Positions 1 to 33,916 of a DNA stretch of 36,555 nucleotides are shown one piece after another. The stretch comes from Gaiellales bacterium. Lineage in GTDB: Bacteria > Actinomycetota > Thermoleophilia > Gaiellales > JAICJC01. The stretch is taken from positions 1-36,555 of the forward strand of contig DASQYY010000137.1 of the NCBI GenBank assembly GCA_035638975.1, written 5' to 3'. The first letter of the stretch is position 1. Each line of letters begins with the position of its first letter. The notes under the pieces were generated by a model. That model worked only from the letters and a program-made list of their open reading frames with translations. It was not told the DNA's origin and searched no databases. Made by a program: the position numbers and the translations under genes.

Positions 1-324
1 GTCGAGCACAGCCGCCGCCACCTCGGCCCGGTAGGTGTCGACCGAGACCACCGCGTCGCAGCCGCGTGCGCGGATGCCCTCCAGCACGGGGATCACGCGC
101 GCCAGCTCCTCCGCGGCCGCCAGCACCGGCCCCGGCCGGGCGGTCATACCGCCGACGTCGATCACCGTCGCCCCGTGCTCGACCAGCTGCAGCGCCCGGT
201 GCACGGCCGCCTCCGTCGTGGCCGTGGCCCCATTGTCATAGAACGAATCGGGTGTGACGTTGACGATGCCCATCAGATACGGCATGCCGGTGGCGGGCAG
301 CGTGCGGGCGCGCAGCTTGAGCAT
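1..324 (-). CDS. folP: dihydropteroate synthase, N-terminal part (gene runs off the left window edge)
   Basis: Reverse-strand translation from ATG (324-322) reads MLKLRARTLPATGMPYLMGIVNVTPDSFYDNGATATTEAAVHRALQLVEHGATVIDVGGMTARPG... This carries the GIVNVTPDSF and D(V/I)GGxxxRPG motifs typical of DHPS. The frame stays open to position 1. Confidence 0.85.
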   Translation of the reverse strand, partial: MLKLRARTLPATGMPYLMGIVNVTPDSFYDNGATATTEAAVHRALQLVEHGATVIDVGGMTARPGPVLAAAEELARVIPVLEGIRARGCDAVVSVDTYRAEVAAAVLD

Positions 325-367
325 GGGTTCAGCGTAGACGCGCTCGTACGCCGCGCAGCACGTTCCC

Positions 368-396
368 TTGACACCGAACACCTGTTCGTCTACACT
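368..396 (+). promoter_or_regulatory. sigma-70/SigA-type promoter, TTGACA-17 nt-TACACT, driving a leaderless LysM gene
   Basis: TTGACA at 368-373, exact 17-nt spacer, TACACT at 391-396. The ATG at 404 lies 7 nt after the -10 hexamer and has no Shine-Dalgarno sequence. Confidence 0.6.
375..388. promoter_or_regulatory. LexA (SOS/Cheo-type) box 1, CGAAC-ACCT-GTTCG
   Basis: Perfect GAAC-N4-GTTC palindrome with matching flanking C/G. It lies inside the -35/-10 spacer. Confidence 0.6.
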
Positions 397-410
397 CGAA
401 CGCATGTTCG
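396..410. promoter_or_regulatory. LexA (SOS/Cheo-type) box 2, TCGAAC-GCAT-GTTCG
   Basis: Perfect GAAC-N4-GTTC palindrome overlapping the end of the -10, the predicted transcription start and the ATG at 404. Its centre is 22 bp from box 1. Confidence 0.65.
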
Positions 411-670
411 CTTCAGTCGCACTTCCCAGACTGACCGTGGCAGTGGCCGCCGCGGTCTGCGCCCTGGCCATGATGCTGGGGTTCGCGTCGCCGTCGACCG
501 GCGCGGCGACGCCCACGAGCTACCGCGTGAAGCCGGGCGACACGCTGTGGGCGATCGCAGCGGCTCACGGCTCGGGCGGCGACGTCCGCGCCGCGGTCTA
601 CGCGATCCGCTCAGCCAACCACCTGTCCGGGGCGACCATCGTGCCGGGCCAGACCCTGATGCTGCCATGA
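404..670 (+). CDS. small single-pass membrane/secreted LysM-domain protein (88 aa), YneA/ChiZ-like architecture
   Basis: MFASVALPRLTVAVAAAVCALAMMLGFASP is a hydrophobic N-terminal segment. YRVKPGDTLWAIAAAHG...IRSANHLSGATIVPGQTLMLP is a LysM motif. I prefer the ATG at 404 over the track start at 368 because 368 lies inside the -35 hexamer. Confidence 0.8.
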   Translation: MFASVALPRLTVAVAAAVCALAMMLGFASPSTGAATPTSYRVKPGDTLWAIAAAHGSGGDVRAAVYAIRSANHLSGATIVPGQTLMLP

Positions 671-861
671 GCACGGCAACCGTGATCTCACTCGACGAGC
701 ACCGCGCCCGCCGCACGGGCATCCCCACGCAGGTGCGCCCGCCGATGCTGCGGATCGTCCGGCCGGACGATCCTCCCGTCGGCCAGGTGTTCACGCTCGA
801 GGTGTTCCTCGCCCGCGCCCGTGCGGTGATGAGCGAGCCGCACACCGACCTCGCGTCATAG
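667..861 (+). CDS. hypothetical 64-aa protein, translationally coupled to the LysM gene
   Basis: Its ATG overlaps the LysM stop (ATGA at 667-670). Codon third positions are overwhelmingly G/C, as in neighbouring real genes. A strong hairpin follows at 892-915. I recognise no family for it. Confidence 0.5.
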   Translation: MSTATVISLDEHRARRTGIPTQVRPPMLRIVRPDDPPVGQVFTLEVFLARARAVMSEPHTDLAS

Positions 862-891
862 GGTCGGGTCCTCGTCCGCGAGGTGCCTGAT

Positions 892-915
892 GGGGCCAGG
901 CTTCAGCCTGGCCCC
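892..915 (+). terminator. terminator-like hairpin without U-tail, GGGGCCAGGC-TTCA-GCCTGGCCCC
   Basis: Perfect 10-bp GC-rich stem with a 4-nt loop, 31 nt after the stop of the 64-aa ORF. There is no T-tract, which is common in high-GC actinobacteria. Confidence 0.5.
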
Positions 916-983: not shown

Positions 984-1961
984 ATGGACCTCGATGTCCT
1001 CTTCCTTGGCACGGCGGGTGCCGTACCGACCGCGCAGCGCGCTCCGGCCGCCTACCTCGTCCGCCGTGGGGGCGAGCGCATCCTGGTCGACTGCGGCGAG
1101 GGCACGCAGCGTCAGATGCTGCGCTCGTCCGCCGGGCTTGCCGACATCGACCTCGCCCTGGTCACGCACTTCCACGCCGACCATGTCCTCGGCCTGCCGG
1201 GGCTGCTGAAGACGCTCAGCCTGCGCTCACGGGAGGCGCCGCTCACGATCTGCGGCCCGCCCGGCCTGCGCTCGCTCATGGGCTCGCTCGACCGCGTGAT
1301 CGGCCGGCTGTCGTTTCCGCTCACGCTCGCGGAGGTGTCGGCCGGGGACGCGATCGAGCGGGACGGCTACCGGATCGAGCCCTATGCGACCGTGCACGGC
1401 GTCTCCAGCGTCGGCTACGCCCTCTGCGAAGATATCCGGCCGGGTCGGTTCGACATGGAGACGGCCTCCGCGCTCGGCGTCCCGTTCGGCCCGCTCTGCG
1501 GCGCCCTGCAGCGGGGCGAGCCGGTCACGCTGGAGGACGGCACCGTGGTCCGGCCGGAGCAGGTGGTGGGCCCGGCCCGGCCCGGCCGCCGGATCGTGTT
1601 CTCGGGCGACACGCGGCCGTGCGCCGGCACGCGCGAGGCAGCGGCCGGAGCCGACCTCCTCATCCACGAAGCGACCTTCCTCGACGACGAGCGCAGGCGC
1701 GCCCGCGACACCGGTCACAGCACGGCTGCCGAGGCCGCTCGGCTCGCAGCGGACGCGCAGGTGTCGATGCTCGCCCTGACGCATCTCTCCACGCGCTACA
1801 CCGGTGGGCAGATCCGGCGCGAGGCGCGGGAGCTGTTCGAGCACACCGTCGTGCCGCGGGACTTCGACTCGATCGAGCTGCCGCTGGCCGAGCGCGGGGA
1901 GCCGCGGCACGTGCGCGCAGACGGCGAGCACGAGGCGCCGATCCCGGCACCCGCCGGCTGA
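984..1961 (+). CDS. rnz: ribonuclease Z / MBL-fold metallo-hydrolase
   Basis: MDLDVLFLGTAGAVPTAQR...LVDCGEGTQRQM...THFHADHVLGLPGLL...FSGDTRP...LIHEATF...GHSTA. These are the HxHxDH and downstream RNase Z motifs. Confidence 0.9.
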   Translation: MDLDVLFLGTAGAVPTAQRAPAAYLVRRGGERILVDCGEGTQRQMLRSSAGLADIDLALVTHFHADHVLGLPGLLKTLSLRSREAPLTICGPPGLRSLMGSLDRVIGRLSFPLTLAEVSAGDAIERDGYRIEPYATVHGVSSVGYALCEDIRPGRFDMETASALGVPFGPLCGALQRGEPVTLEDGTVVRPEQVVGPARPGRRIVFSGDTRPCAGTREAAAGADLLIHEATFLDDERRRARDTGHSTAAEAARLAADAQVSMLALTHLSTRYTGGQIRREARELFEHTVVPRDFDSIELPLAERGEPRHVRADGEHEAPIPAPAG

Positions 1962-15551: not shown

Positions 15552-16529
15552 GTGGAAGCACACGAACTGCACGACACGCCGCCCTCGGAGGCCATCGCGG
15601 GAGCCGGCGAGACGGCCCGGCGTGTGATCGAGAACGTCGCCCGGGTGATCCACGCGCCGCAGGAGCTGCTGGAGCGGTGCGTGCTGGCCATGCTCTGCGA
15701 GGGCCACATCATCCTCGAGGACTTCCCCGGCGTCGGGAAGACGATGCTGGCGAAGTCGCTCGCGCGGTCGCTCGACTGTGAGTTCGCGCGGATCCAGGCG
15801 ACCCCCGACCTGCTCCCCTCGGACATCACCGGCGTCAACGTCTACAACCTGCAGGCGAACGAGTTCGAGTTCCGGCCCGGCCCCGTCTTCGCGAACCTGG
15901 TGCTGGTCGACGAGATCAACCGCGCCAGCCCGAAGACCCAGTCCGCGCTGCTCGAGTGCATGCAGGAGGGACAGGTCACGATCGACGGTGCAACGCACCG
16001 GTTGGCACGCCCCTTCATGGTGATCGCGACGCAGAACCCGATCGAGTACGAGGGCACATTCCCGCTGCCCGAGGCACAGCTCGACCGGTTCACGATGCGG
16101 CTGCACCTTGGGTACCCGCCGATCGCCGAGGAGGCGCGCATGCTCGCCGAGCACTCCGCCTCCGAGCCGCTCGAGGAGCTCGAGCCGGTTGCCTCGGCGG
16201 CCGACCTCGAGACCGCGGTGGACGCGGTCAAGCGGGTCTACGTCGAGGACAGCTTGAATCGCTACGTGGTTGCCATCCTGCGGCAGACGCGGGCCGATTC
16301 GCGGCTCGCGCTCGGCACCAGCCCGCGGGCCGGCATCTCGCTGCTGCGGGTCGCAAAGGCCCACGCCGTGCTGCGCGGCCGGGAATACGTGATCCCCGCC
16401 GACGTCAAGGACGTGGCCGCCGACGTTCTCGCCCATCGCGTCATCCTCGCGGCCGACGCCCGCACCGGCGGGGTCGATGCGGCCGAGGTGATCGGCGAGG
16501 CGGTGGCCCGCACCCCGGTCCCGGTGTAG
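15552..16529 (+). CDS. moxR: MoxR-family AAA+ ATPase
   Basis: HIILEDFPGVGKTMLAKSLARSL (Walker A)...LVLVDEINRASPKTQSALLECMQE (Walker B / sensor)...ATQNPIEYEGTFPLPEAQLDRF. Confidence 0.93.
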   Translation: MEAHELHDTPPSEAIAGAGETARRVIENVARVIHAPQELLERCVLAMLCEGHIILEDFPGVGKTMLAKSLARSLDCEFARIQATPDLLPSDITGVNVYNLQANEFEFRPGPVFANLVLVDEINRASPKTQSALLECMQEGQVTIDGATHRLARPFMVIATQNPIEYEGTFPLPEAQLDRFTMRLHLGYPPIAEEARMLAEHSASEPLEELEPVASAADLETAVDAVKRVYVEDSLNRYVVAILRQTRADSRLALGTSPRAGISLLRVAKAHAVLRGREYVIPADVKDVAADVLAHRVILAADARTGGVDAAEVIGEAVARTPVPV

Positions 16530-16542
16530 CGGTGGGGCCGAC

Positions 16543-17781
16543 GTGACCAGCCGCGGGACCGGCACGCTGCTGCTCGCATTCGCGCTCTACATCGCGTCCT
16601 GGGGCTTCGGCACCAGTGCGATGTACCCGGTTGCGGTCGGCCTGTTCGCGGCACCGCTGATCGCGTGGCTCTGGGTGCGCCTGACCGCGAAGCCGACCAA
16701 CCTGCGCCGGCGGACCGGCCACCGGGAGCTGGTCGAGGGCGGCCGGGTCGGCGTCGAGGTGGAGGTGCGAGGCGACGGCGGGTTGCTCCCGGCACGGGCC
16801 ACGATGCTCGAGAAGATCGGTGATCTCGGCACCCAGGAGGTGCCGCTGCGCCACGTCGGCCATGCACTGCGCGGCCGGTACGTGATCGACCCGGCCCCGC
16901 GCGGCCGCTACACCCTCGCAGCCGCCGAGCTTCGCGTCGACGACCCGCTCGGCCTGGCGGAGTCGCTGACCGCGCTCGAGCGGTCGGACACGCTGCTCGT
17001 CTATCCCCGTGTCTACGCCCTGGACGGCCTGTTCACGGACGCCGGCACCGCCGGCGGAGACGAGGGGCGGGCGCTGCTGCACCGCACCGCCGGATACGAC
17101 CTGCACTCGATCCGCGACTTCCAGCAGGGGGAGAGCCTTCGCCGGGTGCACTGGCGCTCGACTGCGAAGCGGCGCAAGCTGATGGTGAAGGAGCTGACCG
17201 AGCTTCCCCGCGACGAGTCGGCCGTGCTGCTCGATTGCGATCGCACGGCCGAGGTGGGCCCGCCCGGGTCGAGCAGCTTCGACGCGCAGGTGCGCGTCGC
17301 GGCCTCGCTGATGAACCGGATGGTGGAGACGGGCCAGCGCTGCTCGCTGGTCATCCACGGCCCGACACGTCGGCGGATACGCGTGCAGGCCGGCGGCGGG
17401 GACTGGGGGGCGGCCCTGGCGGCGCTCGCAGCCGTCCGGGCAGACGCGCACCGTCCGCTGGCGGCGATGCTCTCGGAGGCGCTGGGCGCGACCGGCGCGG
17501 CGGAGGCGATCGACGCTGCGCGGCTCTACATCGTCACGGGCGCGCTCAGCCCGCAGGTCGCGAGCCGTGTGCTCGCGCTCCGCTCCGCGCGCCGCGACGT
17601 CGCCGTGGTTGCCGTCGATGCAGCGTCGTTCGCCGGCGTCGAGCACGTCCCGGGCTCTGCCGACTCGGCGGCGCTCCAGCTCGCTGCGAGCGGGGTGGCG
17701 GTCGCGCGCGTGCGGGCGGGCGACGACATCGGCGATGTGCTCTCGTCCGCAATGGCGCGGAAGGCGGCCCTCCGTGGCTGA
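16543..17781 (+). CDS. DUF58 domain protein (MoxR partner), with N-terminal TM segments
   Basis: YDLHSIRDFQQGESLRRVHWRSTAKRRKLMVKE is the DUF58 hallmark. It lies immediately downstream of moxR. Confidence 0.88.
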   Translation: MTSRGTGTLLLAFALYIASWGFGTSAMYPVAVGLFAAPLIAWLWVRLTAKPTNLRRRTGHRELVEGGRVGVEVEVRGDGGLLPARATMLEKIGDLGTQEVPLRHVGHALRGRYVIDPAPRGRYTLAAAELRVDDPLGLAESLTALERSDTLLVYPRVYALDGLFTDAGTAGGDEGRALLHRTAGYDLHSIRDFQQGESLRRVHWRSTAKRRKLMVKELTELPRDESAVLLDCDRTAEVGPPGSSSFDAQVRVAASLMNRMVETGQRCSLVIHGPTRRRIRVQAGGGDWGAALAALAAVRADAHRPLAAMLSEALGATGAAEAIDAARLYIVTGALSPQVASRVLALRSARRDVAVVAVDAASFAGVEHVPGSADSAALQLAASGVAVARVRAGDDIGDVLSSAMARKAALRG

Positions 17782-20062
17782 GCGGCTGGTCGTCTTCTTC
17801 GCGGTCGCGGCGTTCAGCGCATGGCATTGGCAGCAGCTCGAGCACCCGCAGATCGCCGCCGGCGAGATGGCGCTCCTGATCCTGCTGGCGCTCGGCCCGG
17901 CCCTGCTGGCGGCGGCCAGGCGATGGGCCGCGGCGATCGTGGCCACGGTGGCCGCCGCCGTCATCGTCGTCTGGCGCGCCTTCGGCTACCTGCCCTGGGA
18001 GCGTGATCACGCGCTCTACCCGGTCAGGGTGGCCTCCGCCGTCCACGATGGCGCCCAGGCCTGGTTCGGCACGATCACGCCCTTCGACCCCGGGCGCTTC
18101 GCCCAGACGGACGGCCTGGTGCAGCTGTCGTTCGCGCTGCTCCTGGGGCTGTTCGCATGGCTGCTGCTGGACGGGCGCTTCGCGCTCACCGCCGTGTCCG
18201 CGGCGTTCGCGCTGTTCGCGATCCCGAGCACCGCCGTTGGCATGGGCGACCGCGGCCTGCGCGCGGCCATCTTCCTTGCCCTGGCGCTGGCGATCCTGGC
18301 GGTATGCCAGCGGCGCATCCCGGCGGGAGGTTCCGCGATCGCGCAGCTGGCCGCCATCGGCGCCGCAACCGTGGTGGCCGGCGTGGTGGTGGGGTCGGCG
18401 CCGGGGGTGGCGAAGGGCGCGTTCTTCGACTGGCGGCACTGGAACCCGCTGGCAGGCGGCGGCGCACGCATCAGCGTCGGCTACGTCTGGAACGAGACGT
18501 ACGGGCCGCTGCACTTCCCCAAGAACCCGACGACGATGTTCACCGTCTCGTCGATCAACCCGCACTACTGGAAGGCGGGCGTGCTGACGGACTTCAACGG
18601 AACGAGCTGGGTGGCGCAGGACATCACCCAGACGCCGTTCCATGACACCGACGGCATCGGCGCACCGCCCAGCATGCTGCCGCCGAACGCCCAGGACCCG
18701 AAGCGCGGCGACATGGTGCAGATCGGCATCAAGATCGACGGGCTGGCGGACCCCCACCTGATCGGCACCGGCCAGCCGACGCGCTTCACGCTCACGTCAC
18801 AGCGGGTGGACGCCACGCTCAGCACCGACGGGACCGTGGTGACGAGCACCGACCTGCCCCGCGACGCCACCTACACCGTGCGGTCGTACTCGCCGAACCC
18901 GACGGTGAAGGAGCTCGCAGGAGCCGGCACGCATTTTCCGGCCGACGTGGCGGCCGGCATCATCGTCAACAACCAGCGCATCCCCGTCTGGGGGAGCGGG
19001 CGCGGGGTCCGTCGCATCTCGCTCGACCCGGGCCTCGTGCGCGCGTCAAACCAGGCGTGGCACGAATCCGGCGCCGATGATCCCACGGCCAGCGAATATG
19101 GCGCCGTCGCCGCCCTCGAGTCGTACTTCCACAGCAAGAAGTTCCACTACGACCAGACCCCGCCGCGCGGCACCGGGCCCGTGCTGGCCGACTTCATGCT
19201 GCGGTCGCACCGCGGCTACTGCCAGATGTTCTCGGGGTCGATGGCGCTCGTGCTGCGTCTGCACGGCATCCCGGCACGGGTGGCGTACGGCTTCACGGAG
19301 GGCCATGAGACCAGCAGCGGCGATTACACGGTGCTCGACCGCGACGCCCACGCGTGGGTGGAGGCCTACTTCCCCGGCTACGGCTGGATGCCCTTCGAGC
19401 CGACGCCCACGCGCCATCTTCCGGTGCTGACCTCGACGACCAACAACAAGCTGCTGACGCTGGTGGCGAACCGCCAGGAGGCGTCGAAGCTGGGCCTGCC
19501 GATCAAGCTGCAGCAGACGCTCGGCCTGCCCTCCTCGCTGCAGGCCGGCGGCGGAAACCCGGATGCGAGGCACAGCAGGCTCACCCGCCCCAGCGGCCGC
19601 GGTGGCACCTTGACGGCTGCGCCGTCAGGCGGGCACACGAGCTTCTTCGTCTGGGCGGTGTCGGCCACGATGGTGGTGCTGCTGGTGCTGGCCGGGGTCA
19701 AGCTGGTGGCCGTGCGCTGGCGCTATCTGCGCCGCGGCCCGCGCGGGCAGGCGTCCGCGGCCTACCACGAGATGGCCACCTACCTGGGTGACCAGGGGAT
19801 CACGGTGCCGCCGAACGCGACGTTCGAGGAGCTGGCCGCGATCGTCGATTCCGCCTGGGGCGTCGACGCCTCCGAGCTCGCCGCGGCAGGGAGCGCCGCG
19901 CGGTACGCGCCGCCGGCGAGAGCACGGGAGGCGGGCCGGCAGGTGCGCCCCGCGCTTCGCCGGATTCGGCGGGAGATGCGCGCCGCCCTGAGCCTGCGCG
20001 AGCGCGCCATGGGCGCGCTGCGGCTGCGCTCGATGCTCGCGCAGACGACGCATCTGGAGTGA
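17774..20062 (+). CDS. polytopic membrane transglutaminase-like protein (TgpA/DUF3488-type)
   Basis: Multiple N-terminal hydrophobic helices. Transglutaminase core HRGYCQMFSGSMALVLRLHGIPARVAYGF...DAHAWVEAYFPGYGWMPFEPTP (Cys-His-Asp). A late TM helix follows. The start is uncertain: GTG 17774 overlaps the DUF58 stop by 8 nt, and earlier in-frame starts exist. Confidence 0.85.
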   Translation: MAERLVVFFAVAAFSAWHWQQLEHPQIAAGEMALLILLALGPALLAAARRWAAAIVATVAAAVIVVWRAFGYLPWERDHALYPVRVASAVHDGAQAWFGTITPFDPGRFAQTDGLVQLSFALLLGLFAWLLLDGRFALTAVSAAFALFAIPSTAVGMGDRGLRAAIFLALALAILAVCQRRIPAGGSAIAQLAAIGAATVVAGVVVGSAPGVAKGAFFDWRHWNPLAGGGARISVGYVWNETYGPLHFPKNPTTMFTVSSINPHYWKAGVLTDFNGTSWVAQDITQTPFHDTDGIGAPPSMLPPNAQDPKRGDMVQIGIKIDGLADPHLIGTGQPTRFTLTSQRVDATLSTDGTVVTSTDLPRDATYTVRSYSPNPTVKELAGAGTHFPADVAAGIIVNNQRIPVWGSGRGVRRISLDPGLVRASNQAWHESGADDPTASEYGAVAALESYFHSKKFHYDQTPPRGTGPVLADFMLRSHRGYCQMFSGSMALVLRLHGIPARVAYGFTEGHETSSGDYTVLDRDAHAWVEAYFPGYGWMPFEPTPTRHLPVLTSTTNNKLLTLVANRQEASKLGLPIKLQQTLGLPSSLQAGGGNPDARHSRLTRPSGRGGTLTAAPSGGHTSFFVWAVSATMVVLLVLAGVKLVAVRWRYLRRGPRGQASAAYHEMATYLGDQGITVPPNATFEELAAIVDSAWGVDASELAAAGSAARYAPPARAREAGRQVRPALRRIRREMRAALSLRERAMGALRLRSMLAQTTHLE

Positions 20063-23162: not shown

Positions 23163-25247
23163 ATGGCAAAGAAGACGGTGACCGATATCGCGCGCGAGCA
23201 GGGCGTCTCCGAGGCCGAGGTCAAGCAGAAGCTGGACGAGGCCGGCGCAGCCGCGCCCGCTGACGACCTGGTCGACGACGAAGACGTCCGTCGCGCCTTC
23301 GGCGCCAAGGCAACCGTGCCGGCCCAGGAGCCGGGCCAGCCCGCACGGCATGCGCGCCCCCAGCGCGGCGCCCAGCCCGGCCGCCGCCGTAGGGTTGTGA
23401 TCGACTCGCAGGCCGGCCGCCGCCCCGGGCAGGGGAAGCGCGAGCGCGGTCCGCGGCCCGAGGCCAAGCGCGAGCCCGAGGTGCCGACCGGGCCGGTGAA
23501 GGTCGAGTCCGGCGTCACGGTCAAGGATCTCGCCGAGAAGCTCGGCATCAGCCCCGCCAAGATCATCGCCTACATGATGGGCGAGGGGCAGATGGTGACG
23601 ATGACCGTGTCGCTCTCCGACGACGACGTGCAGCTGATCGGCCTCGAGTTCGGCCGTGAGGTGATCATCCAGCACGCCGCGGATGAGGAGGAGCCCGAGG
23701 AAGCGTCCTACGAGGACGCGCCTGACTCCCTCGTCACACGGCCGCCCGTCGTCACGATCATGGGCCACGTCGACCATGGCAAGACGACGCTGCTCGACGC
23801 CATCCGCGAGTCCTCGGTCGTCGAGACGGAGGCAGGCGGCATCACCCAGCACATCGGCGCCTACCAGGTCGACGTCGACGGAGGGCGCAAAGTCACCTTC
23901 CTCGACACCCCGGGCCACGAGGCCTTCACCGCCATGCGCGCCCGCGGGGCGAAGGTGACGGATGTCGCCGTGCTGGTCGTCGCGGCGGACGACGGCGTCA
24001 TGCCGCAGACGGTCGAGGCGATCGACCACGCGAAGGCGGCCGAAGTGCCGATCGTGGTGGCCGTGAACAAGATCGACAAGGAGGACGCGAACCCCGAGCG
24101 GGTGCGCGGCGAGCTGGTCAACCAGGGCCTGCAGCCGGAGGAGTGGGGCGGCGAGACCATCTTCGTCGACGTCTCCGCCAAGGCCAAGCAGAACCTCGAC
24201 CAGCTGCTCGAGATGCTGCTCCTGCAGGCTGACGTGCTCGAGCTCAAGGCCAACCCGAAGGCCGAGGCCAGCGGCGTCATCATCGAGTCGCGGCTCGACG
24301 TCGGGCGCGGGCCGGTGGCGACGCTGCTCGTGCAGCGCGGCACCCTGCGCGTCGGGGATGCGGTCGTCGCCGGCGACGCCTGGGGGCGCGTCAAGGCACT
24401 GAACGACGCCAACGGCAAGCGCGTCAAAGAGGCCGGCCCGGCCGTGCCGGTCGAGATCCTCGGATTCGACAAGCCGCCGCCGGCCGGCGAGTTCTGCCGC
24501 GTGGTCGAGAACGACCGCGTGGCGCGTCAGCTTGCGCAGAAGCGCGCCCAGCGCATCCGCACCGAGATGCTGGCCCGCCGCAGCAAGGCGGTCAGCCTCG
24601 AGGATCTCTTCTCCGCCGTCCAGGAGGGCGCGGTGCAGGAGCTCGGCCTGATCATCAAGGCCGACGTCCAGGGTTCCGTCGAGGCCGCCGAGGGCGAGAT
24701 CGCGAAGATCCAGCACCCGGAGGTCACGGTCAGCGTCATCCACTCCGGCGTCGGCGGCATCACGGCCAGCGACATCAACCTGGCCGCGGCGTCGAACGCG
24801 ATCGTCGTCGGCTTCAATGTCCGGCCAAACGCCGAGGCCAAGTCGCTGGCCGAGCGCGAGGGCGTCGACATCCGCACCTACCGGGTGATCTACCAGCTGA
24901 CCGAGGACATCCAGCAGGCCCTGATCGGCATGCTCGCCCCCGAGCAGGTCGAGGAGGTGATCGGTGAGCTGGAGGTGCGTCAGACCTTCAAGGTCTCGCG
25001 CCTGGGGACGATCGCCGGCTGCATGGTCACAAGCGGCGTCGTCACGCGCGGCGCGCAGGTGCGCCTGATCCGCGACGGCACGATCGTCCACGACGGCCGG
25101 ATCGGCACGCTGCGCCGCTTCCAGGACGACGTGCGCGAGGTGCAGCAGGGCTTCGAGTGCGGCGTCACGATCGACGGCTACAACGACGTCAAGGAAGGCG
25201 ACGTGCTCGAGGTCTACACCGTCCGCGAGGTCGCCCGCACCGCCTAG
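23163..25247 (+). CDS. infB: translation initiation factor IF-2
   Basis: N-terminal IF2_N ([20 protein letters not shown]), G domain ([14 protein letters not shown]...DTPGHEAF...NKID), and C-terminal domains. Confidence 0.97.
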
Positions 25248-26830
25248 CTCGGCCGCGGCGCGAGCAGCCGGGCCACCCGCTCGGTGCCGATGCCGCTGAC
25301 CAGCAGCCGTTCACGCCGGTCGGAGAGCAGATGCTGCGTCCAATCGACGGTGCCTCCGTCGGCGACCGAGTACGTCGTGCCGGCCAGCTCGGCGTCGATG
25401 TTGAGCGAGATGCCGCGGTAGTAGCCGACCGCATGCAACCGGCCGGGCCGAAAGCCGAGCCGGGCACCCGGGAACCGGTCGGCCAGCGGCGCGAGCACCC
25501 GGTCGGCCATGCGCCCCAGCCGTTCCCATCCCGCGGGGGCGGAGGCCGAGAAGCGGGGCAGCTCGACCCCGGCGCCGGCCAGGATGTGCTCGGGGTCCGC
25601 GCCGCTGATCCGCCACTCGGCGGCGAGGTCGAGGAGATCGACACCGGCGCCGCGGCACCGGGAAGCGAGGGCGGCAGTGTCGCTGACCTCAACGGTGACC
25701 CGGCCGACCGCATGGCCGCTGCGTCGGAGCCGCTCGAGCATCTCCAGGTAGACGGCCAGCTGCGCACGGAGCGCCCAGGTCGCAAACCCGTCGCCGGGCA
25801 TGGCCCGCCCGCCGCTGGCGAGCGTGAACAGGCCGAAGTGGCGTTGCCAGCCGGCCGGTGGCTGCTGCATCCGCAGCACCCGAGCGTTCGCGGCGAGCGC
25901 GGGCTGCGCCTCGCCGGCCCGCCGGCGAAGCGCGACCTCGAGCGCAAGGCTGCTGGTTGGATCGGCGAGCACCTCGCCGCCCCTCACCGTCGCCACGCTG
26001 AGGTTCTGGTCGAGCCCGGCGAGCACCGCGTTGGTCGCTCCCGGGGCGACCGGCGGGAGGGTGACCGCCTCGAACGCCTGGGCGGCGTCCAGCGCCGATG
26101 CCTCCACCTCGTGGAGCAGCCGTGCATCGACCGGCGCCGGCTGGTACACGTCGCTGCCGAGCCGATCCGACAGCAGATCGGCCGGGGCCCTGCGACGGGC
26201 CCGCGAGCGCGCCAGGTGGAGCATCAGCGACCGCTGGTCGCCGGCCGGCAACGCCTCGATCAGGGCGAGCGGGTCGTGACCGGCCAGCGCACCACGCAGC
26301 CGGGCGATCACGGCCCCGTCCGGCGGACGGTCGAGCGGCCGCGCCATCCGCAGCTCCATCAGCTCCGGAGCCGCCGCCGCCGGGTGCGGCCCGGCGATCA
26401 CCTCGAATCCGGCGCGCCGGTAGAGGTCGATCGCGGCGCGGTTGTGCTCCCGCACGTCGAGCTCCACCGTGGTCGCACCGACGCGCTTCGCCCACGCACA
26501 GACCGCCTCGACCAGCTCGGAGCCCAAACGGCGGCCGCGGGCGGCCGGCTCCACCCACATGGCGACCAGCAGGGCGGCCCGGTCCTCGCCCAGCCGAAGC
26601 CCGGTCGCGCTGCCCAGGTGCCGCTCGCCGTCGACGGCAACGAAGGTCGCGACACCCAGGTCGCCCGCCGCTCTGCGGGCACGGTCCTCCCAGAACGCGG
26701 GCGGCTCGGCGGCCTCCTCGTCCAGCCGGCTGTGGAAGGCGTCCGGCGAATCCGCGAGCATCGCCAGCCGCACCCGCCGCAGCTCCTCCGCCTCTGAGGG
26801 ACGCAGCCGGCGGACGACCACGCCGCTCAC
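25244..26830 (-). CDS. fusion protein: N-terminal GNAT acetyltransferase plus a C-terminal class II aaRS-like (HisRS/HisZ-like) core, 528 aa
   Basis: GNAT part: LLVAMWVEPAARGRRLGSELVEAVCAWAK...LDVREHNRAAIDLYRRAGF. C-terminal part has motif-like strings: AFEAVTLPPV; VRGGEVLADPTSSLALEV; ARVLRMQQPPAGWQRHFGLFTL; AVGYYRGISLNI...ADGGTVDWTQ...LVSGIGTERV. GTG 26830 overlaps the antiporter stop (GTGA). Its stop overlaps the infB stop on the other strand (CTAG, 25244-25247). Confidence 0.7.
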   Translation of the reverse strand: MSGVVVRRLRPSEAEELRRVRLAMLADSPDAFHSRLDEEAAEPPAFWEDRARRAAGDLGVATFVAVDGERHLGSATGLRLGEDRAALLVAMWVEPAARGRRLGSELVEAVCAWAKRVGATTVELDVREHNRAAIDLYRRAGFEVIAGPHPAAAAPELMELRMARPLDRPPDGAVIARLRGALAGHDPLALIEALPAGDQRSLMLHLARSRARRRAPADLLSDRLGSDVYQPAPVDARLLHEVEASALDAAQAFEAVTLPPVAPGATNAVLAGLDQNLSVATVRGGEVLADPTSSLALEVALRRRAGEAQPALAANARVLRMQQPPAGWQRHFGLFTLASGGRAMPGDGFATWALRAQLAVYLEMLERLRRSGHAVGRVTVEVSDTAALASRCRGAGVDLLDLAAEWRISGADPEHILAGAGVELPRFSASAPAGWERLGRMADRVLAPLADRFPGARLGFRPGRLHAVGYYRGISLNIDAELAGTTYSVADGGTVDWTQHLLSDRRERLLVSGIGTERVARLLAPRPS

Positions 26831-31864: not shown

Positions 31865-32545
31865 TCATAGGCTCCGCACCGCCAGCGGCGTCTCGCCCGT
31901 CGCCTCCACCCGGAACGCCCGCCCGCCGTCGCGCTCGCTGATCGCCTCGTGCAGCTCCGTGCCGATGAAGTGCAGGCCGACGCCGTCGTCGGCGGCCCAG
32001 CCGGGCGGCAGTGCGCCCTTGGCAACCCACCTGGTGTAGGTCGGCCGGCGGAGCGGCTCTCCGTCGTAATGCGGGCAGAAGCTCCCCGGCAGCAGGCCGA
32101 GCCCGTCGTTCATCGGCCCCAGCCCCGCGCCGAACGAGTCCGTCGAGCAGCCCTCGAACCAGCAGTTGGCCCCGGCCGACAGCCCGCACAGGATCACGCC
32201 CGCCTCCCAGGCCGCGCGCAGCGCGGCATCGACGCCGTGCAGGCGCCAGACCGCAAGCATGTTGGCAGTGTTCCCGCCGCCCACGTAGACCACGTCCTGG
32301 TCGAGCAGGAACGCCGTGATGTCCGAGACCTCGCGCCAGAACAGGCCGAGCACCTCGGTCTCCGCGCGGTCACCCAGCGCCTCGTGGAAGCGCGCGATCT
32401 TCTCCTGGCTGTCGCCGGCGGCGGTGGGCACGTAGCAGACCCGCGGGCGCGACTTGCCCGTCAGCCCGAGGATGTGGTCGTCCAGCGGCCGGCCGTCCAT
32501 CGAGAATCCGCCGCCGCCCATGGCGACGATCTGCCGCGTGCTCAC
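31865..32545 (-). CDS. peptidase S51 family (dipeptidase E / cyanophycinase-like) protein, 226 aa
   Basis: [11 protein letters not shown]...CYVPTAAGD...[21 protein letters not shown]...[19 protein letters not shown] 32545 overlaps the stop of the upstream gene (GTGA). Confidence 0.8.
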
Positions 32546-33480
32546 ACGGCGACGGGCGTCACGCCCAGGCTCTCGAGCGTGCGTCGCAGGCCCTCGTCGA
32601 GCCCCACCTTCGGCTCCCACCCGAGGATCTCGCGTGCCCGCGTGATGTCCGGCTGCCGCACCTTCGGATCGTCCTCCGGAAGGCCCTCGAAGACGATCGG
32701 CGACGTCGTGCCGGTCACTCGCTGCACCCGCTCGGCCAGCTCGAGCAGCGTCATCTCGTTCGGGTTCCCGATGTTGACGGGCATGTGGTAGTCGCTCATC
32801 GCGAGCCGGAAGATGCCCTCGATCAGGTCGTCGACGTAGCAGAACGACCGCGTCTGGCTGCCGTCGCCGAACACTGTCAGCGGCTTGCCCTGCACCGCCT
32901 GGCGGATGAAGGTCGGGATGGCGCGCCCGTCGTGCTGCCGCATCCGCGGCCCGTAGGTGTTGAAGATGCGGACGATGTGCGTGTCCACGCCCTGCTGGCG
33001 GTGGTACGCCATCGTCATCGCCTCGGAGTAGCGCTTCGCCTCGTCGTAGACCCCGCGCGGGCCGACCGGGTTGACGTTGCCCCAGTACTCCTCCTGCTGC
33101 GGGTGCACCTCGGGATCGCCGTACACCTCGGAGGTGGAGGCGAGCAGGAACCTCGCGCGCTTGAACTTGGCCAGGCCGAGCGCGTTGTGCGTCCCGTAGG
33201 AGCCGACCTTCAGCGTGTGCAGCGGCAGGCGGAGGTAGTCGACCGGGCTGGCCGGGCTGGCCAGGTGGAACACCGCCTCGACCTGGCCCTCGACGTCGAT
33301 GTAGTCGACGCAGTTGTGGTACCGGAACTGGAAGGCGTCGTCACGCAGGTGCTTGACGTTCTCGAGGGAGCCGGTGTCGAGGTTGTCGAGGCAGACCACA
33401 CGCCAGCCGCGCTCGAGCAGGTACTCACAGAGATGGGAGCCGAGAAAGCCGGCGCCGCCGGTGACGACTGCAGTGCTCAA
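32542..33480 (-). CDS. UDP-glucuronate decarboxylase (UXS-type SDR epimerase/dehydratase)
   Basis: [35 protein letters not shown]...[10 protein letters not shown]...YDEAKR...[13 protein letters not shown] start at 33480. Confidence 0.9.
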
Positions 33481-33646
33481 GCGATGAGAACCTCCTGGTT
33501 GCCTGGCTCAAGCCTACAGCCGTCGCCCGGGAGCGGAAGCACCCCTGTGCTACCCTGCCAGGCGACCGCACCGCGGACCGGCGCCGCTTGCCAGCGCCGA
33601 TCTGGGATGCAGGCGACTACGAGCACACGGCAAGGAGGTGGTAGGC

Positions 33647-33916
33647 GTGCCGCTTACCCAGGAGCAGAAGCAGGAGATCGTCGGGAAGCACGGCCGGGAC
33701 GAGAAGGACACCGGCTCCACGCGAGTGCAGATCGCACTCCTCACCCAGCGGATCACCGAGCTCACGGAGCACATGAAGGTGCACCAGCATGACCACCACT
33801 CACGCCGCGGCCTGCTGAAGCTGGTCGGCCGCCGGCGCCGGCTTCTGACATATCTGCAGAAGCACGACCTGGAGGGCTACCGGGCCCTCATCAAGGAGCT
33901 GGGCCTGCGCCGCTAG
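33647..33916 (+). CDS. rpsO: 30S ribosomal protein S15 (89 aa)
   Basis: (V)[72 protein letters not shown] 33647 lies 8 nt after AAGGAGG and gives the canonical length. Confidence 0.95.

Follow-up and report, generated by a model that had tools for sequence, protein, structure and literature searches.

Paired LexA-type boxes and a strictly linked small protein in a putative SOS checkpoint operon of Gaiellales

What would two SOS-type operators, set around the promoter and start codon of one small gene, control in the Gaiellales, an abundant, almost uncultured order of soil bacteria? The question arises from a 36,555-nt stretch of a metagenome-assembled genome (MAG) of a Gaiellales bacterium (Actinomycetota, Thermoleophilia; assembly GCA_035638975.1, contig DASQYY010000137.1, positions 1 to 36,555; hereafter the window). 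A prediction made from its sequence had placed a pair of LexA-type boxes at the head of two overlapping open reading frames (ORFs): ORF1, encoding an 88-aa protein with a hydrophobic helix and a LysM domain, and ORF2, encoding a 64-aa protein. The first was proposed to be an SOS-induced inhibitor of cell division akin to Bacillus subtilis YneA and Mycobacterium tuberculosis ChiZ, and the second was called an orphan. We followed up this original prediction computationally. Its coordinates for the −35 and −10 hexamers, the boxes, the ATG and both ORFs all match the window sequence and are collected, with those of the neighbouring features, in Table 1.

The palindromes are rare and tightly placed. 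Exactly two GAAC-N4-GTTC sites occur in the 36,555 bases, where 0.22 are expected and 2 of 100 shuffles reach two, so the claim that the window holds no further site stands. Both are perfect 14-mers against the Cheo-type SOS consensus CGAAC-N4-GTTCG, which was taken from M. tuberculosis and S. venezuelae LexA and may not be that of the host. The only sigma-70-like promoter match between positions 250 and 1,050 is TTGACA-17-TACACT (0.0 expected in the promoter scan). Box 1 lies within its 17-nt spacer and box 2 runs from the −10 element to +7 of ORF1, a placement suited to occlusion.

We compared this arrangement with 71 related loci (437 kb). Some were reached through ORF1 and ORF2 homologues, the others by scanning GTDB species genomes and JGI metagenomes with ORF2 as the query. 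This DNA contains 134 GAAC-N4-GTTC sites, every one of them paired with another on a LysM gene promoter. Promoters were compared at 66 loci, which represent 50 distinct sequences. Throughout these 50, the −35 element, both CGAAC/GTTCG half-site pairs and a TAnnnT −10 are kept, and variation across the 66 loci is largely limited to the N4 spacers, the linker between the −10 element and box 2, and the DNA 5′ of the −35 element. Half-sites that hold while spacers, linkers and upstream DNA drift are the pattern expected of a dimeric, palindrome-binding repressor, and promoter and boxes together read as a strong phylogenetic footprint, as would be expected of a promoter blocked by such a dimer. The 22-bp distance between box centres, which the original prediction had likened to two helical turns, is found in the window and does not carry over to most of its relatives: among the 50 distinct promoters it is 22 bp in 13, 24 bp in 32 and 23, 25, 29 or 32 bp in the remainder, and the 22-bp spacing occurs only in the window's clade. 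Because the distance varies between 22 and 32 bp, helical phasing is not the constrained feature; what is conserved is where the boxes lie relative to the promoter.

Could the cognate repressor be LexA? CGAAC-N4-GTTCG is a LexA site in Firmicutes too. Among actinobacteria, the experimentally defined site of M. tuberculosis LexA is TCGAAC-N4-GTTCGA (PMC3381160) and that of S. venezuelae LexA is tCGAAC-N4-GNNCGa (PMC9380542). A physical link comes from two distant loci on Chloroflexi-like contigs, L070 and L071, in which homologous small LysM genes are divergent from lexA. The neighbour in L070 comprises the N-terminal domain and hinge of LexA, with best relatives labelled Chloroflexi, and L071 comes from a Chloroflexi MAG. 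Both loci follow the same promoter plan of TTGACA, a box in the spacer, a −10 element and a second box that holds the ATG; in each, this second box is partly degenerate (L070:918-1046, L071:3877-4000). Divergence from lexA is the arrangement described for yneA, chiZ and sosA (PMC6851548), and its combination here with a shared promoter design links the ORF1 family with the classical inhibitors encoded beside lexA and speaks for LexA as the repressor. A search seeded with the L070 LexA fragment returned only Chloroflexi-like LexA among its best 120 matches. Both half-sites are perfectly conserved in all 66 loci, which suggests that a cognate repressor, presumably LexA, has been retained. We consider it likely that this is a LexA-type, damage-inducible promoter.

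Box 2 is also read as code. The ATG (404-406) lies within it, 7 nt past the −10 element and with no GGAGG-like element on either side, and it falls inside box 2 in 48 of the 50 distinct promoters. The right half-site therefore encodes the N-terminus, ATG-TTC-Gnn giving Met-Phe-Ala/Gly/Val, and nearly all ORF1 homologues, very distant ones included, begin with MFA, MFG or MFV. This operator-encoded MF[AGV] signature could aid the search for new members in metagenomic data. The proposal that the mRNA is leaderless agrees with the 7-nt gap and missing Shine-Dalgarno element in the window's clade and in the 79-aa clade, and loses ground beyond them. A 7-nt gap between the −10 element and the ATG is present in 15 of the 50 distinct promoters, a 10-nt gap in 32 and a Shine-Dalgarno-led downstream ATG in about five; the largest clade has the 10-nt gap, with a leader of about 3 nt. 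A leaderless ORF1 mRNA is thus plausible in the window's lineage and not universal among its relatives. In L021-L025, which come from genome MAGs, a GGGAGG follows box 2, with an in-frame ATG 18 nt downstream, and in L021 the ATG inside box 2 has been lost; the same gene seems to have switched, in the course of evolution, between leaderless and Shine-Dalgarno-led initiation.

The product of ORF1 has the predicted layout of an N-terminal hydrophobic helix and a C-terminal LysM domain. The LysM hidden Markov model (PF01476) matches over its full length (E 2e-12, 47.3 bits in Pfam), and the domain ends at the stop codon, leaving no C-terminal tail. Hydropathy on the Kyte-Doolittle scale (KD19) peaks at 2.35 over residues 10-28. 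An AlphaFold2 (AF2) model has a helix at residues 7-26, a linker of 12 residues and a beta-alpha-alpha-beta domain, with block-mean predicted local distance difference test (pLDDT) values of 82-93, and Foldseek superimposes the domain on peptidoglycan-binding LysM domains at 1.7-1.8 Å root-mean-square deviation. The ratio of non-synonymous to synonymous substitution rates (dN/dS) is 0.13-0.36. ORF1 homologues carry Arg or Arg-Arg ahead of the transmembrane (TM) helix, which by the positive-inside rule suggests an N-in/C-out topology with the LysM domain outside the cytoplasm. The best NCBIfam model is YneA (PRK14125), aligned over residues 16-88 (73 of 88) at 42.6 bits against a cut-off of 60, so ORF1 is not a member of that curated equivalog despite its YneA-like layout. 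It is a new lineage member of the known YneA/ChiZ class.

How closely does ORF1 resemble the proteins of that class? YneA and ChiZ are Gram-positive SOS division inhibitors with a TM plus LysM layout (PMC6851548). YneA binds TM7 of FtsW through its TM helix and, with a LysM domain that is also needed, blocks septal peptidoglycan synthesis; ChiZ is predicted to act alike (PMC13396833). ORF1 shares with B. subtilis YneA a small, bitopic form, an N-terminal TM helix, one extracellular LysM domain and CGAAC-N4-GTTCG boxes in its promoter. Unlike YneA, it ends with the LysM domain, scores below the family cut-off, is not adjacent to lexA, starts inside its operator on a predicted leaderless mRNA and has a downstream partner from an unrelated 64-aa family. 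With M. tuberculosis ChiZ it shares the phylum, a single TM helix, a C-terminal LysM domain and multiple boxes, and ChiZ is damage-inducible (PMC3381160, PMC6851548). The original prediction had cited ChiZ (Rv2719c) as LexA-controlled, which is right in that LexA binds three imperfect boxes there, each with 2-3 mismatches, and less so in that most of the induction is RecA-independent (PMC3381160). Whereas chiZ has imperfect boxes and is divergent from lexA, the gene described here has perfect boxes, encodes a cytoplasmic tail of about nine residues and is followed by a separate ORF for a disordered basic protein. ChiZ is about twice as long and has an Arg/Pro-rich, disordered cytoplasmic N-region of about 64 residues. 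The L070 and L071 proteins, which are among 27 database hits to ORF1, are homologous and share the promoter plan, with MFV or MYA at the N-terminus. They differ from ORF1 in lying beside lexA, in their longer Arg-rich cytoplasmic tails and in having no ORF2 homologue; the L071 boxes are partly degenerate. SosA of S. aureus, DivS of C. glutamicum and SidA and DidA of Caulobacter offer a functional analogy, being small damage-induced membrane proteins that block late division (PMC6851548, PMC13396833), although none has a LysM domain or any sequence similarity to ORF1. Within this class, the features that mark the locus as a variant are relocation away from lexA, a perfect dual operator, an operator-encoded N-terminus and a strictly linked, undescribed partner.

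That partner, ORF2, yields a product 100% identical to NCBI 'hypothetical protein VE824_07705 [Gaiellales bacterium]'. Its homologues fall into 28 clusters at 60-100% identity, all 63-68 aa long, and a profile search of 1.84 billion representatives added about 20 small proteins of 49-97 aa. Three motifs are kept down to about 40% identity, V-[IV]-S-L-x-E-W-R-x-R-R, P-x-L-R-L-V and F-x-L-[DE]-V-F-L-x-R-A-R-x-V-M-x-E, with Pro-rich linkers of variable length between them. G+C contents at the three codon positions (GC1/2/3) are 0.71/0.51/0.91 and dN/dS is 0.16-0.88; by GC3, dN/dS, conserved length and motifs, ORF2 is a real coding gene under purifying selection. The protein has no TM segment and a pI of 9.1, and its AF2 model (predicted template modelling score, pTM, 0.30) is not globular, with helices only at residues 9-15 and 44-55. 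As had been proposed, it matches no recognisable family: 27 members gave no Pfam or NCBIfam match, and there was no PHROG match and no PDB profile hit at E<=10. 'Orphan' was nonetheless too strong a word, for ORF2 belongs to a small, undescribed family of about 45 clusters limited to Gaiellales-like lineages. ORF2 was absent from viral contigs and the locus lies in conserved housekeeping synteny, which rules out a mobile-element or phage origin.

Linkage between the two genes is strict in one direction. In the roughly 60 evaluable loci, meaning ORF2 loci with enough upstream DNA, ORF2 was never found without the LysM gene and always lay directly downstream of it. The LysM gene with its two boxes stands directly 5′ of ORF2 in 9/9 genome loci, 40/40 metagenome loci, the window and the homologue loci. 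An ATGA or GTGA overlap is retained in all ORF2 lineages; in the window it is the ATGA at 667-670 that had been predicted to join the two genes. The converse fails, since L014/L015, L016, L070 and L071 carry the LysM gene and the same operator without ORF2, from which it follows that ORF2 is an accessory gained within a Gaiellales-type clade. Neither a 77-aa downstream ORF in L014 nor an overlapping ORF in L070 matches the ORF2 profile. The former, also present in L015 (L014:2696-2929, L015:2159-2392), is very acidic and overlaps the end of a metallo-beta-lactamase (MBL) gene by 4 nt in this ORF2-less lineage; the latter overlaps the LysM gene at TGATG and is cut by the contig end.

Three further observations concern ORF2. 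Homologues end in tails of small residues (DLAS, GLASA, HLVG, DAEPA, HAQPA, RIA; window 844-861), and L62-A63-S64 is nearly invariant in the window's clade; such a tail may be a protease recognition tag. In L025 (9062-10102) a frameshift separates the N-terminal half of ORF2 from the rest, while the near-identical L023 and L024 are intact, and the break is probably an assembly indel, with long-read sequencing suspected, and not a pseudogene. We also considered motif 3 (LDVFLRRAR) as a mimic of the FtsZ C-terminal peptide; the alignment needs a 2-residue gap, and we make no such claim.

On balance we favour, with some reserve, a DNA-damage (SOS) checkpoint operon that includes division inhibition. 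In undamaged cells, two LexA-type repressor dimers, one in the −35/−10 spacer and one across both the transcription start and the start codon, would shut a strong sigma-70-type promoter. Damage would trigger RecA-stimulated self-cleavage of LexA, and the promoter would fire to give a leaderless or nearly leaderless bicistronic mRNA ending at G+C-rich hairpins. ORF1 would insert N-in/C-out through its single TM helix and set its LysM domain on peptidoglycan. By analogy with YneA and ChiZ, and with the same measured confidence as the model as a whole, we expect ORF1 to block septal peptidoglycan synthesis, probably at FtsW or the divisome, delaying division during DNA repair. ORF2 would be made by termination-reinitiation at the ATGA in rough stoichiometry with ORF1. 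As a small, basic, disordered cytoplasmic protein with an amphipathic C-terminal helix, it may cooperate with ORF1 or target it from within the cytoplasm, as a co-effector or a modulator, and our confidence in any specific role is low. ORF1 shows only about nine cytoplasmic residues where ChiZ has a long arm, so ORF2 might supply a cytoplasmic function in trans. We propose tentatively, as an idea that may well prove wrong, that with ORF2 a new family of checkpoint proteins comes into view, one that would work in the SOS response from the cytoplasm; its members would be disordered, basic and 64-97 aa long, with three short linear motifs and an amphipathic helix, and would be produced at a fixed ratio to a YneA-like inhibitor. 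Such a protein might provide, in trans, a cytoplasmic arm like that of ChiZ, or serve instead as an independent second effector or a built-in timer. As an arm in trans, it could contact FtsZ, its membrane anchor, FtsW or the membrane.

Several observations weigh against this checkpoint, and they are best judged beside the explanations to which they lend themselves. The operon could be damage-inducible while ORF1 is a secreted or anchored peptidoglycan-binding stress protein that remodels or protects the wall, say, and ORF2 has nothing to do with division. Peptidoglycan binding is a generic property of LysM modules, and most of the YneA score, itself below the curated cut-off, is carried by this domain; ORF1 has neither a C-terminal tail like that of YneA nor a long cytoplasmic N-region like that of ChiZ; and its hydrophobic segment is followed by G-F-A|S-P, a possible signal-peptidase site, so that ORF1 might be released instead of anchored. 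Yet that hydrophobic stretch, 19 residues long with a KD value of 2.35, is TM-like and unlike a short signal-peptide core, the distant homologues are divergent from lexA as those of the known inhibitors are, and the described Gram-positive SOS division inhibitors are likewise small, with a single TM helix, a single LysM domain and SOS boxes in the promoter (PMC6851548, PMC13396833). An envelope role of this kind is unlikely, in our view, while keeping appreciable weight. That the palindromes are instead bound by another regulator, or that the lineage has no LexA and the operon answers a signal other than DNA damage, seems quite improbable: CGAAC-N4-GTTCG is the established actinobacterial LexA site (PMC3381160, PMC9380542), the perfectly kept half-sites imply a cognate repressor, and L070 and L071 have this design right beside lexA. 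To set against this, the gene is not beside lexA, as originally noted: in the window, as in every Gaiellales-type locus whose upstream side is covered, its divergent neighbour is folP. We found no lexA in the window, nor in syntenic relatives over 6-10 kb of upstream DNA, and the window offers only housekeeping genes and no other SOS gene for comparison. The Gaiellales lexA and recA loci are outside the examined DNA, and the operator's use by a host LexA, like the presence of lexA itself, is presumed. Rubrobacter radiotolerans RSPS-4, for one among the deep-branching actinobacteria, is without lexA (PMC4148983).

For ORF2, the main alternative to a cytoplasmic role in trans is that of antagonist or timer, a labile cytoplasmic antidote whose degradation or dilution sets the length of the ORF1 block, comparable with a toxin-antitoxin pair or with DdcA acting on YneA. 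Coupling at the ATGA would fix the stoichiometry, the protein is disordered in its AF2 model, the C-termini LAS, LASA, AEPA and RIA could be protease tags (this degron reading is speculation), and YneA has a dedicated antagonist and proteases (PMC13396833). But the roughly nine cytoplasmic residues of ORF1 offer an antagonist little surface, lineages without ORF2 (L014, L016, L070) keep the LysM gene and its operator, and ORF2 resembles neither known antitoxins nor DdcA, which leaves an antidote distinctly unlikely. The low confidence of the ORF2 model and the absence from it of any functional analogy count against our own proposal. Finally, high-G+C DNA yields many long spurious ORFs, and the boxes or ORF2 might be chance features of such sequence. 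Two adjacent boxes against 0.22 expected, both conserved in 66 loci, together with the GC3 of ORF2 (0.91 against a GC2 of 0.51), its conserved length, its three motifs and its linkage, refute a chance origin, to which we assign next to no probability.

If the checkpoint interpretation is right, the locus extends the YneA/ChiZ design to Gaiellales and probably to Chloroflexi too. To our knowledge, SOS-induced membrane division inhibitors have been recognised in just a few cultured Firmicutes, Mycobacteria, Corynebacteria and Caulobacter. No such inhibitor is recognised in Streptomyces (PMC9380542). The operator architecture is unusually clear, with a half-site that doubles as code for the first residues. 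A specialist would find ORF1 itself unsurprising; the novelty lies in its partner ORF2, which is conserved and strictly linked to it. Should ORF2 modulate or complement the inhibitor, the checkpoint would have a component not described before, and through it there would be a way into the cytoplasmic control of such inhibitors, and should it found a checkpoint family of its own, the Gaiellales damage checkpoint would be a two-component device working on both faces of the membrane.

Table 1 Coordinates of the operon and its neighbouring features in the window
Feature	Position	Strand	Evidence and remarks
folP 5′ part (dihydropteroate synthase), cut by window edge	1..324	-	Pfam Pterin_bind 4.7e-27; same divergent neighbour in syntenic Gaiellales-type loci with this side visible
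Candidate folP -10, TACGCT	331..336	-	6 nt before folP ATG; TAnnnT 6-7 nt before start in all relatives (L001-L012)
-35 hexamer TTGACA	368..373	+	Sequence and promoter scan; TTGAC just 5′ of box 1 in 48/50 distinct orthologous promoters
SOS (Cheo-type) box 1, CGAAC-ACCT-GTTCG (CGAACACCTGTTCG)	375..388	+	Fills -35/-10 spacer; half-sites invariant, N4 variable across 66 loci
-10 hexamer TACACT	391..396	+	17 nt after -35; TAnnnT kept here in relatives
SOS box 2, CGAAC-GCAT-GTTCG (CGAACGCATGTTCG)	397..410 (396 with leading T)	+	Over predicted transcription start and ORF1 start codon
ORF1, 88 aa: short cytoplasmic N-tail, one TM helix (about 7-28), 12-residue linker, C-terminal LysM	404..670	+	Pfam, NCBIfam, hydropathy, AF2, Foldseek, dN/dS
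ORF2, 64 aa, soluble, basic, mostly disordered	667..861	+	Homologue clusters, GC3, dN/dS, AF2; motifs V-I-S-L-x-E-x-R-x-R-R, P-x-L-R-x-V and F-T-L-E-V-F-L-A-R-A-R-x-V-M; start overlaps ORF1 stop (ATGA 667-670)
Two stacked G+C-rich hairpins (863-891; 892-915, GGGGCCAGGC-TTCA-GCCTGGCCCC)	863..915	+	Directly after ORF2 stop; no T tract
Metallo-beta-lactamase / RNase Z-like gene	984..1961	+	Pfam Lactamase_B_2 1.3e-21; separate transcription unit in this lineage

The operon sits in a recurrent Gaiellales-type block, with M29 peptidases and folP upstream, then the LysM gene and ORF2, and MBL/RNase Z-like, methyltransferase and uracil-DNA glycosylase genes and the pyr operon downstream. The divergent folP has no Shine-Dalgarno element and is probably leaderless. 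Its candidate −10 element is separated from the LysM −35 element by 30 bp that are not conserved, and the SOS boxes lie upstream of its promoter, so folP is probably outside LexA control.

On the other side, the hairpins after ORF2 have a fold energy of −43.3 kcal/mol (z = −3.7), and hairpins of unrelated sequence stand at this place in four other lineages. Folds following ORF2 reach z of about −4.8 in L001 and L008 and are weak in L004 (z −2.2) and L005 (z −1.65), and L001 has a canonical hairpin with a U-run. A consensus terminator scan found none here, as there is no T-run; the hairpins at 863-915 are a probable operon terminator without a T tract. With stable hairpins directly after ORF2, the transcription unit most likely consists of just ORF1 and ORF2.

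The MBL gene that follows is syntenic in all relatives and comes directly after the LysM gene where ORF2 is absent (L014). In L001, L005, L007 and L010, a conserved CCCTAAGATCT lies 7-8 nt before its ATG and is another leaderless-type promoter. We rejected an anti-defence function for this gene as anti-Pycsar Apyc1, the Pfam score being 25 bits where the cut-off is 50. Neither an Rfam nor a tRNA scan of the window gave a hit, which removes an RNA element from consideration. Three long ORFs farther along (25157-26797, 31949-32791 and 32785-33792) have no Pfam hit, failed a filter on G+C content by codon position and may be wrong-frame ORFs of high-G+C sequence; no annotation was assigned to 25244-26800. 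Between them and the operon, at 15552-20062, lies a typical three-gene cluster that encodes a MoxR-type AAA ATPase, a DUF58 protein and a transglutaminase-like membrane protein.

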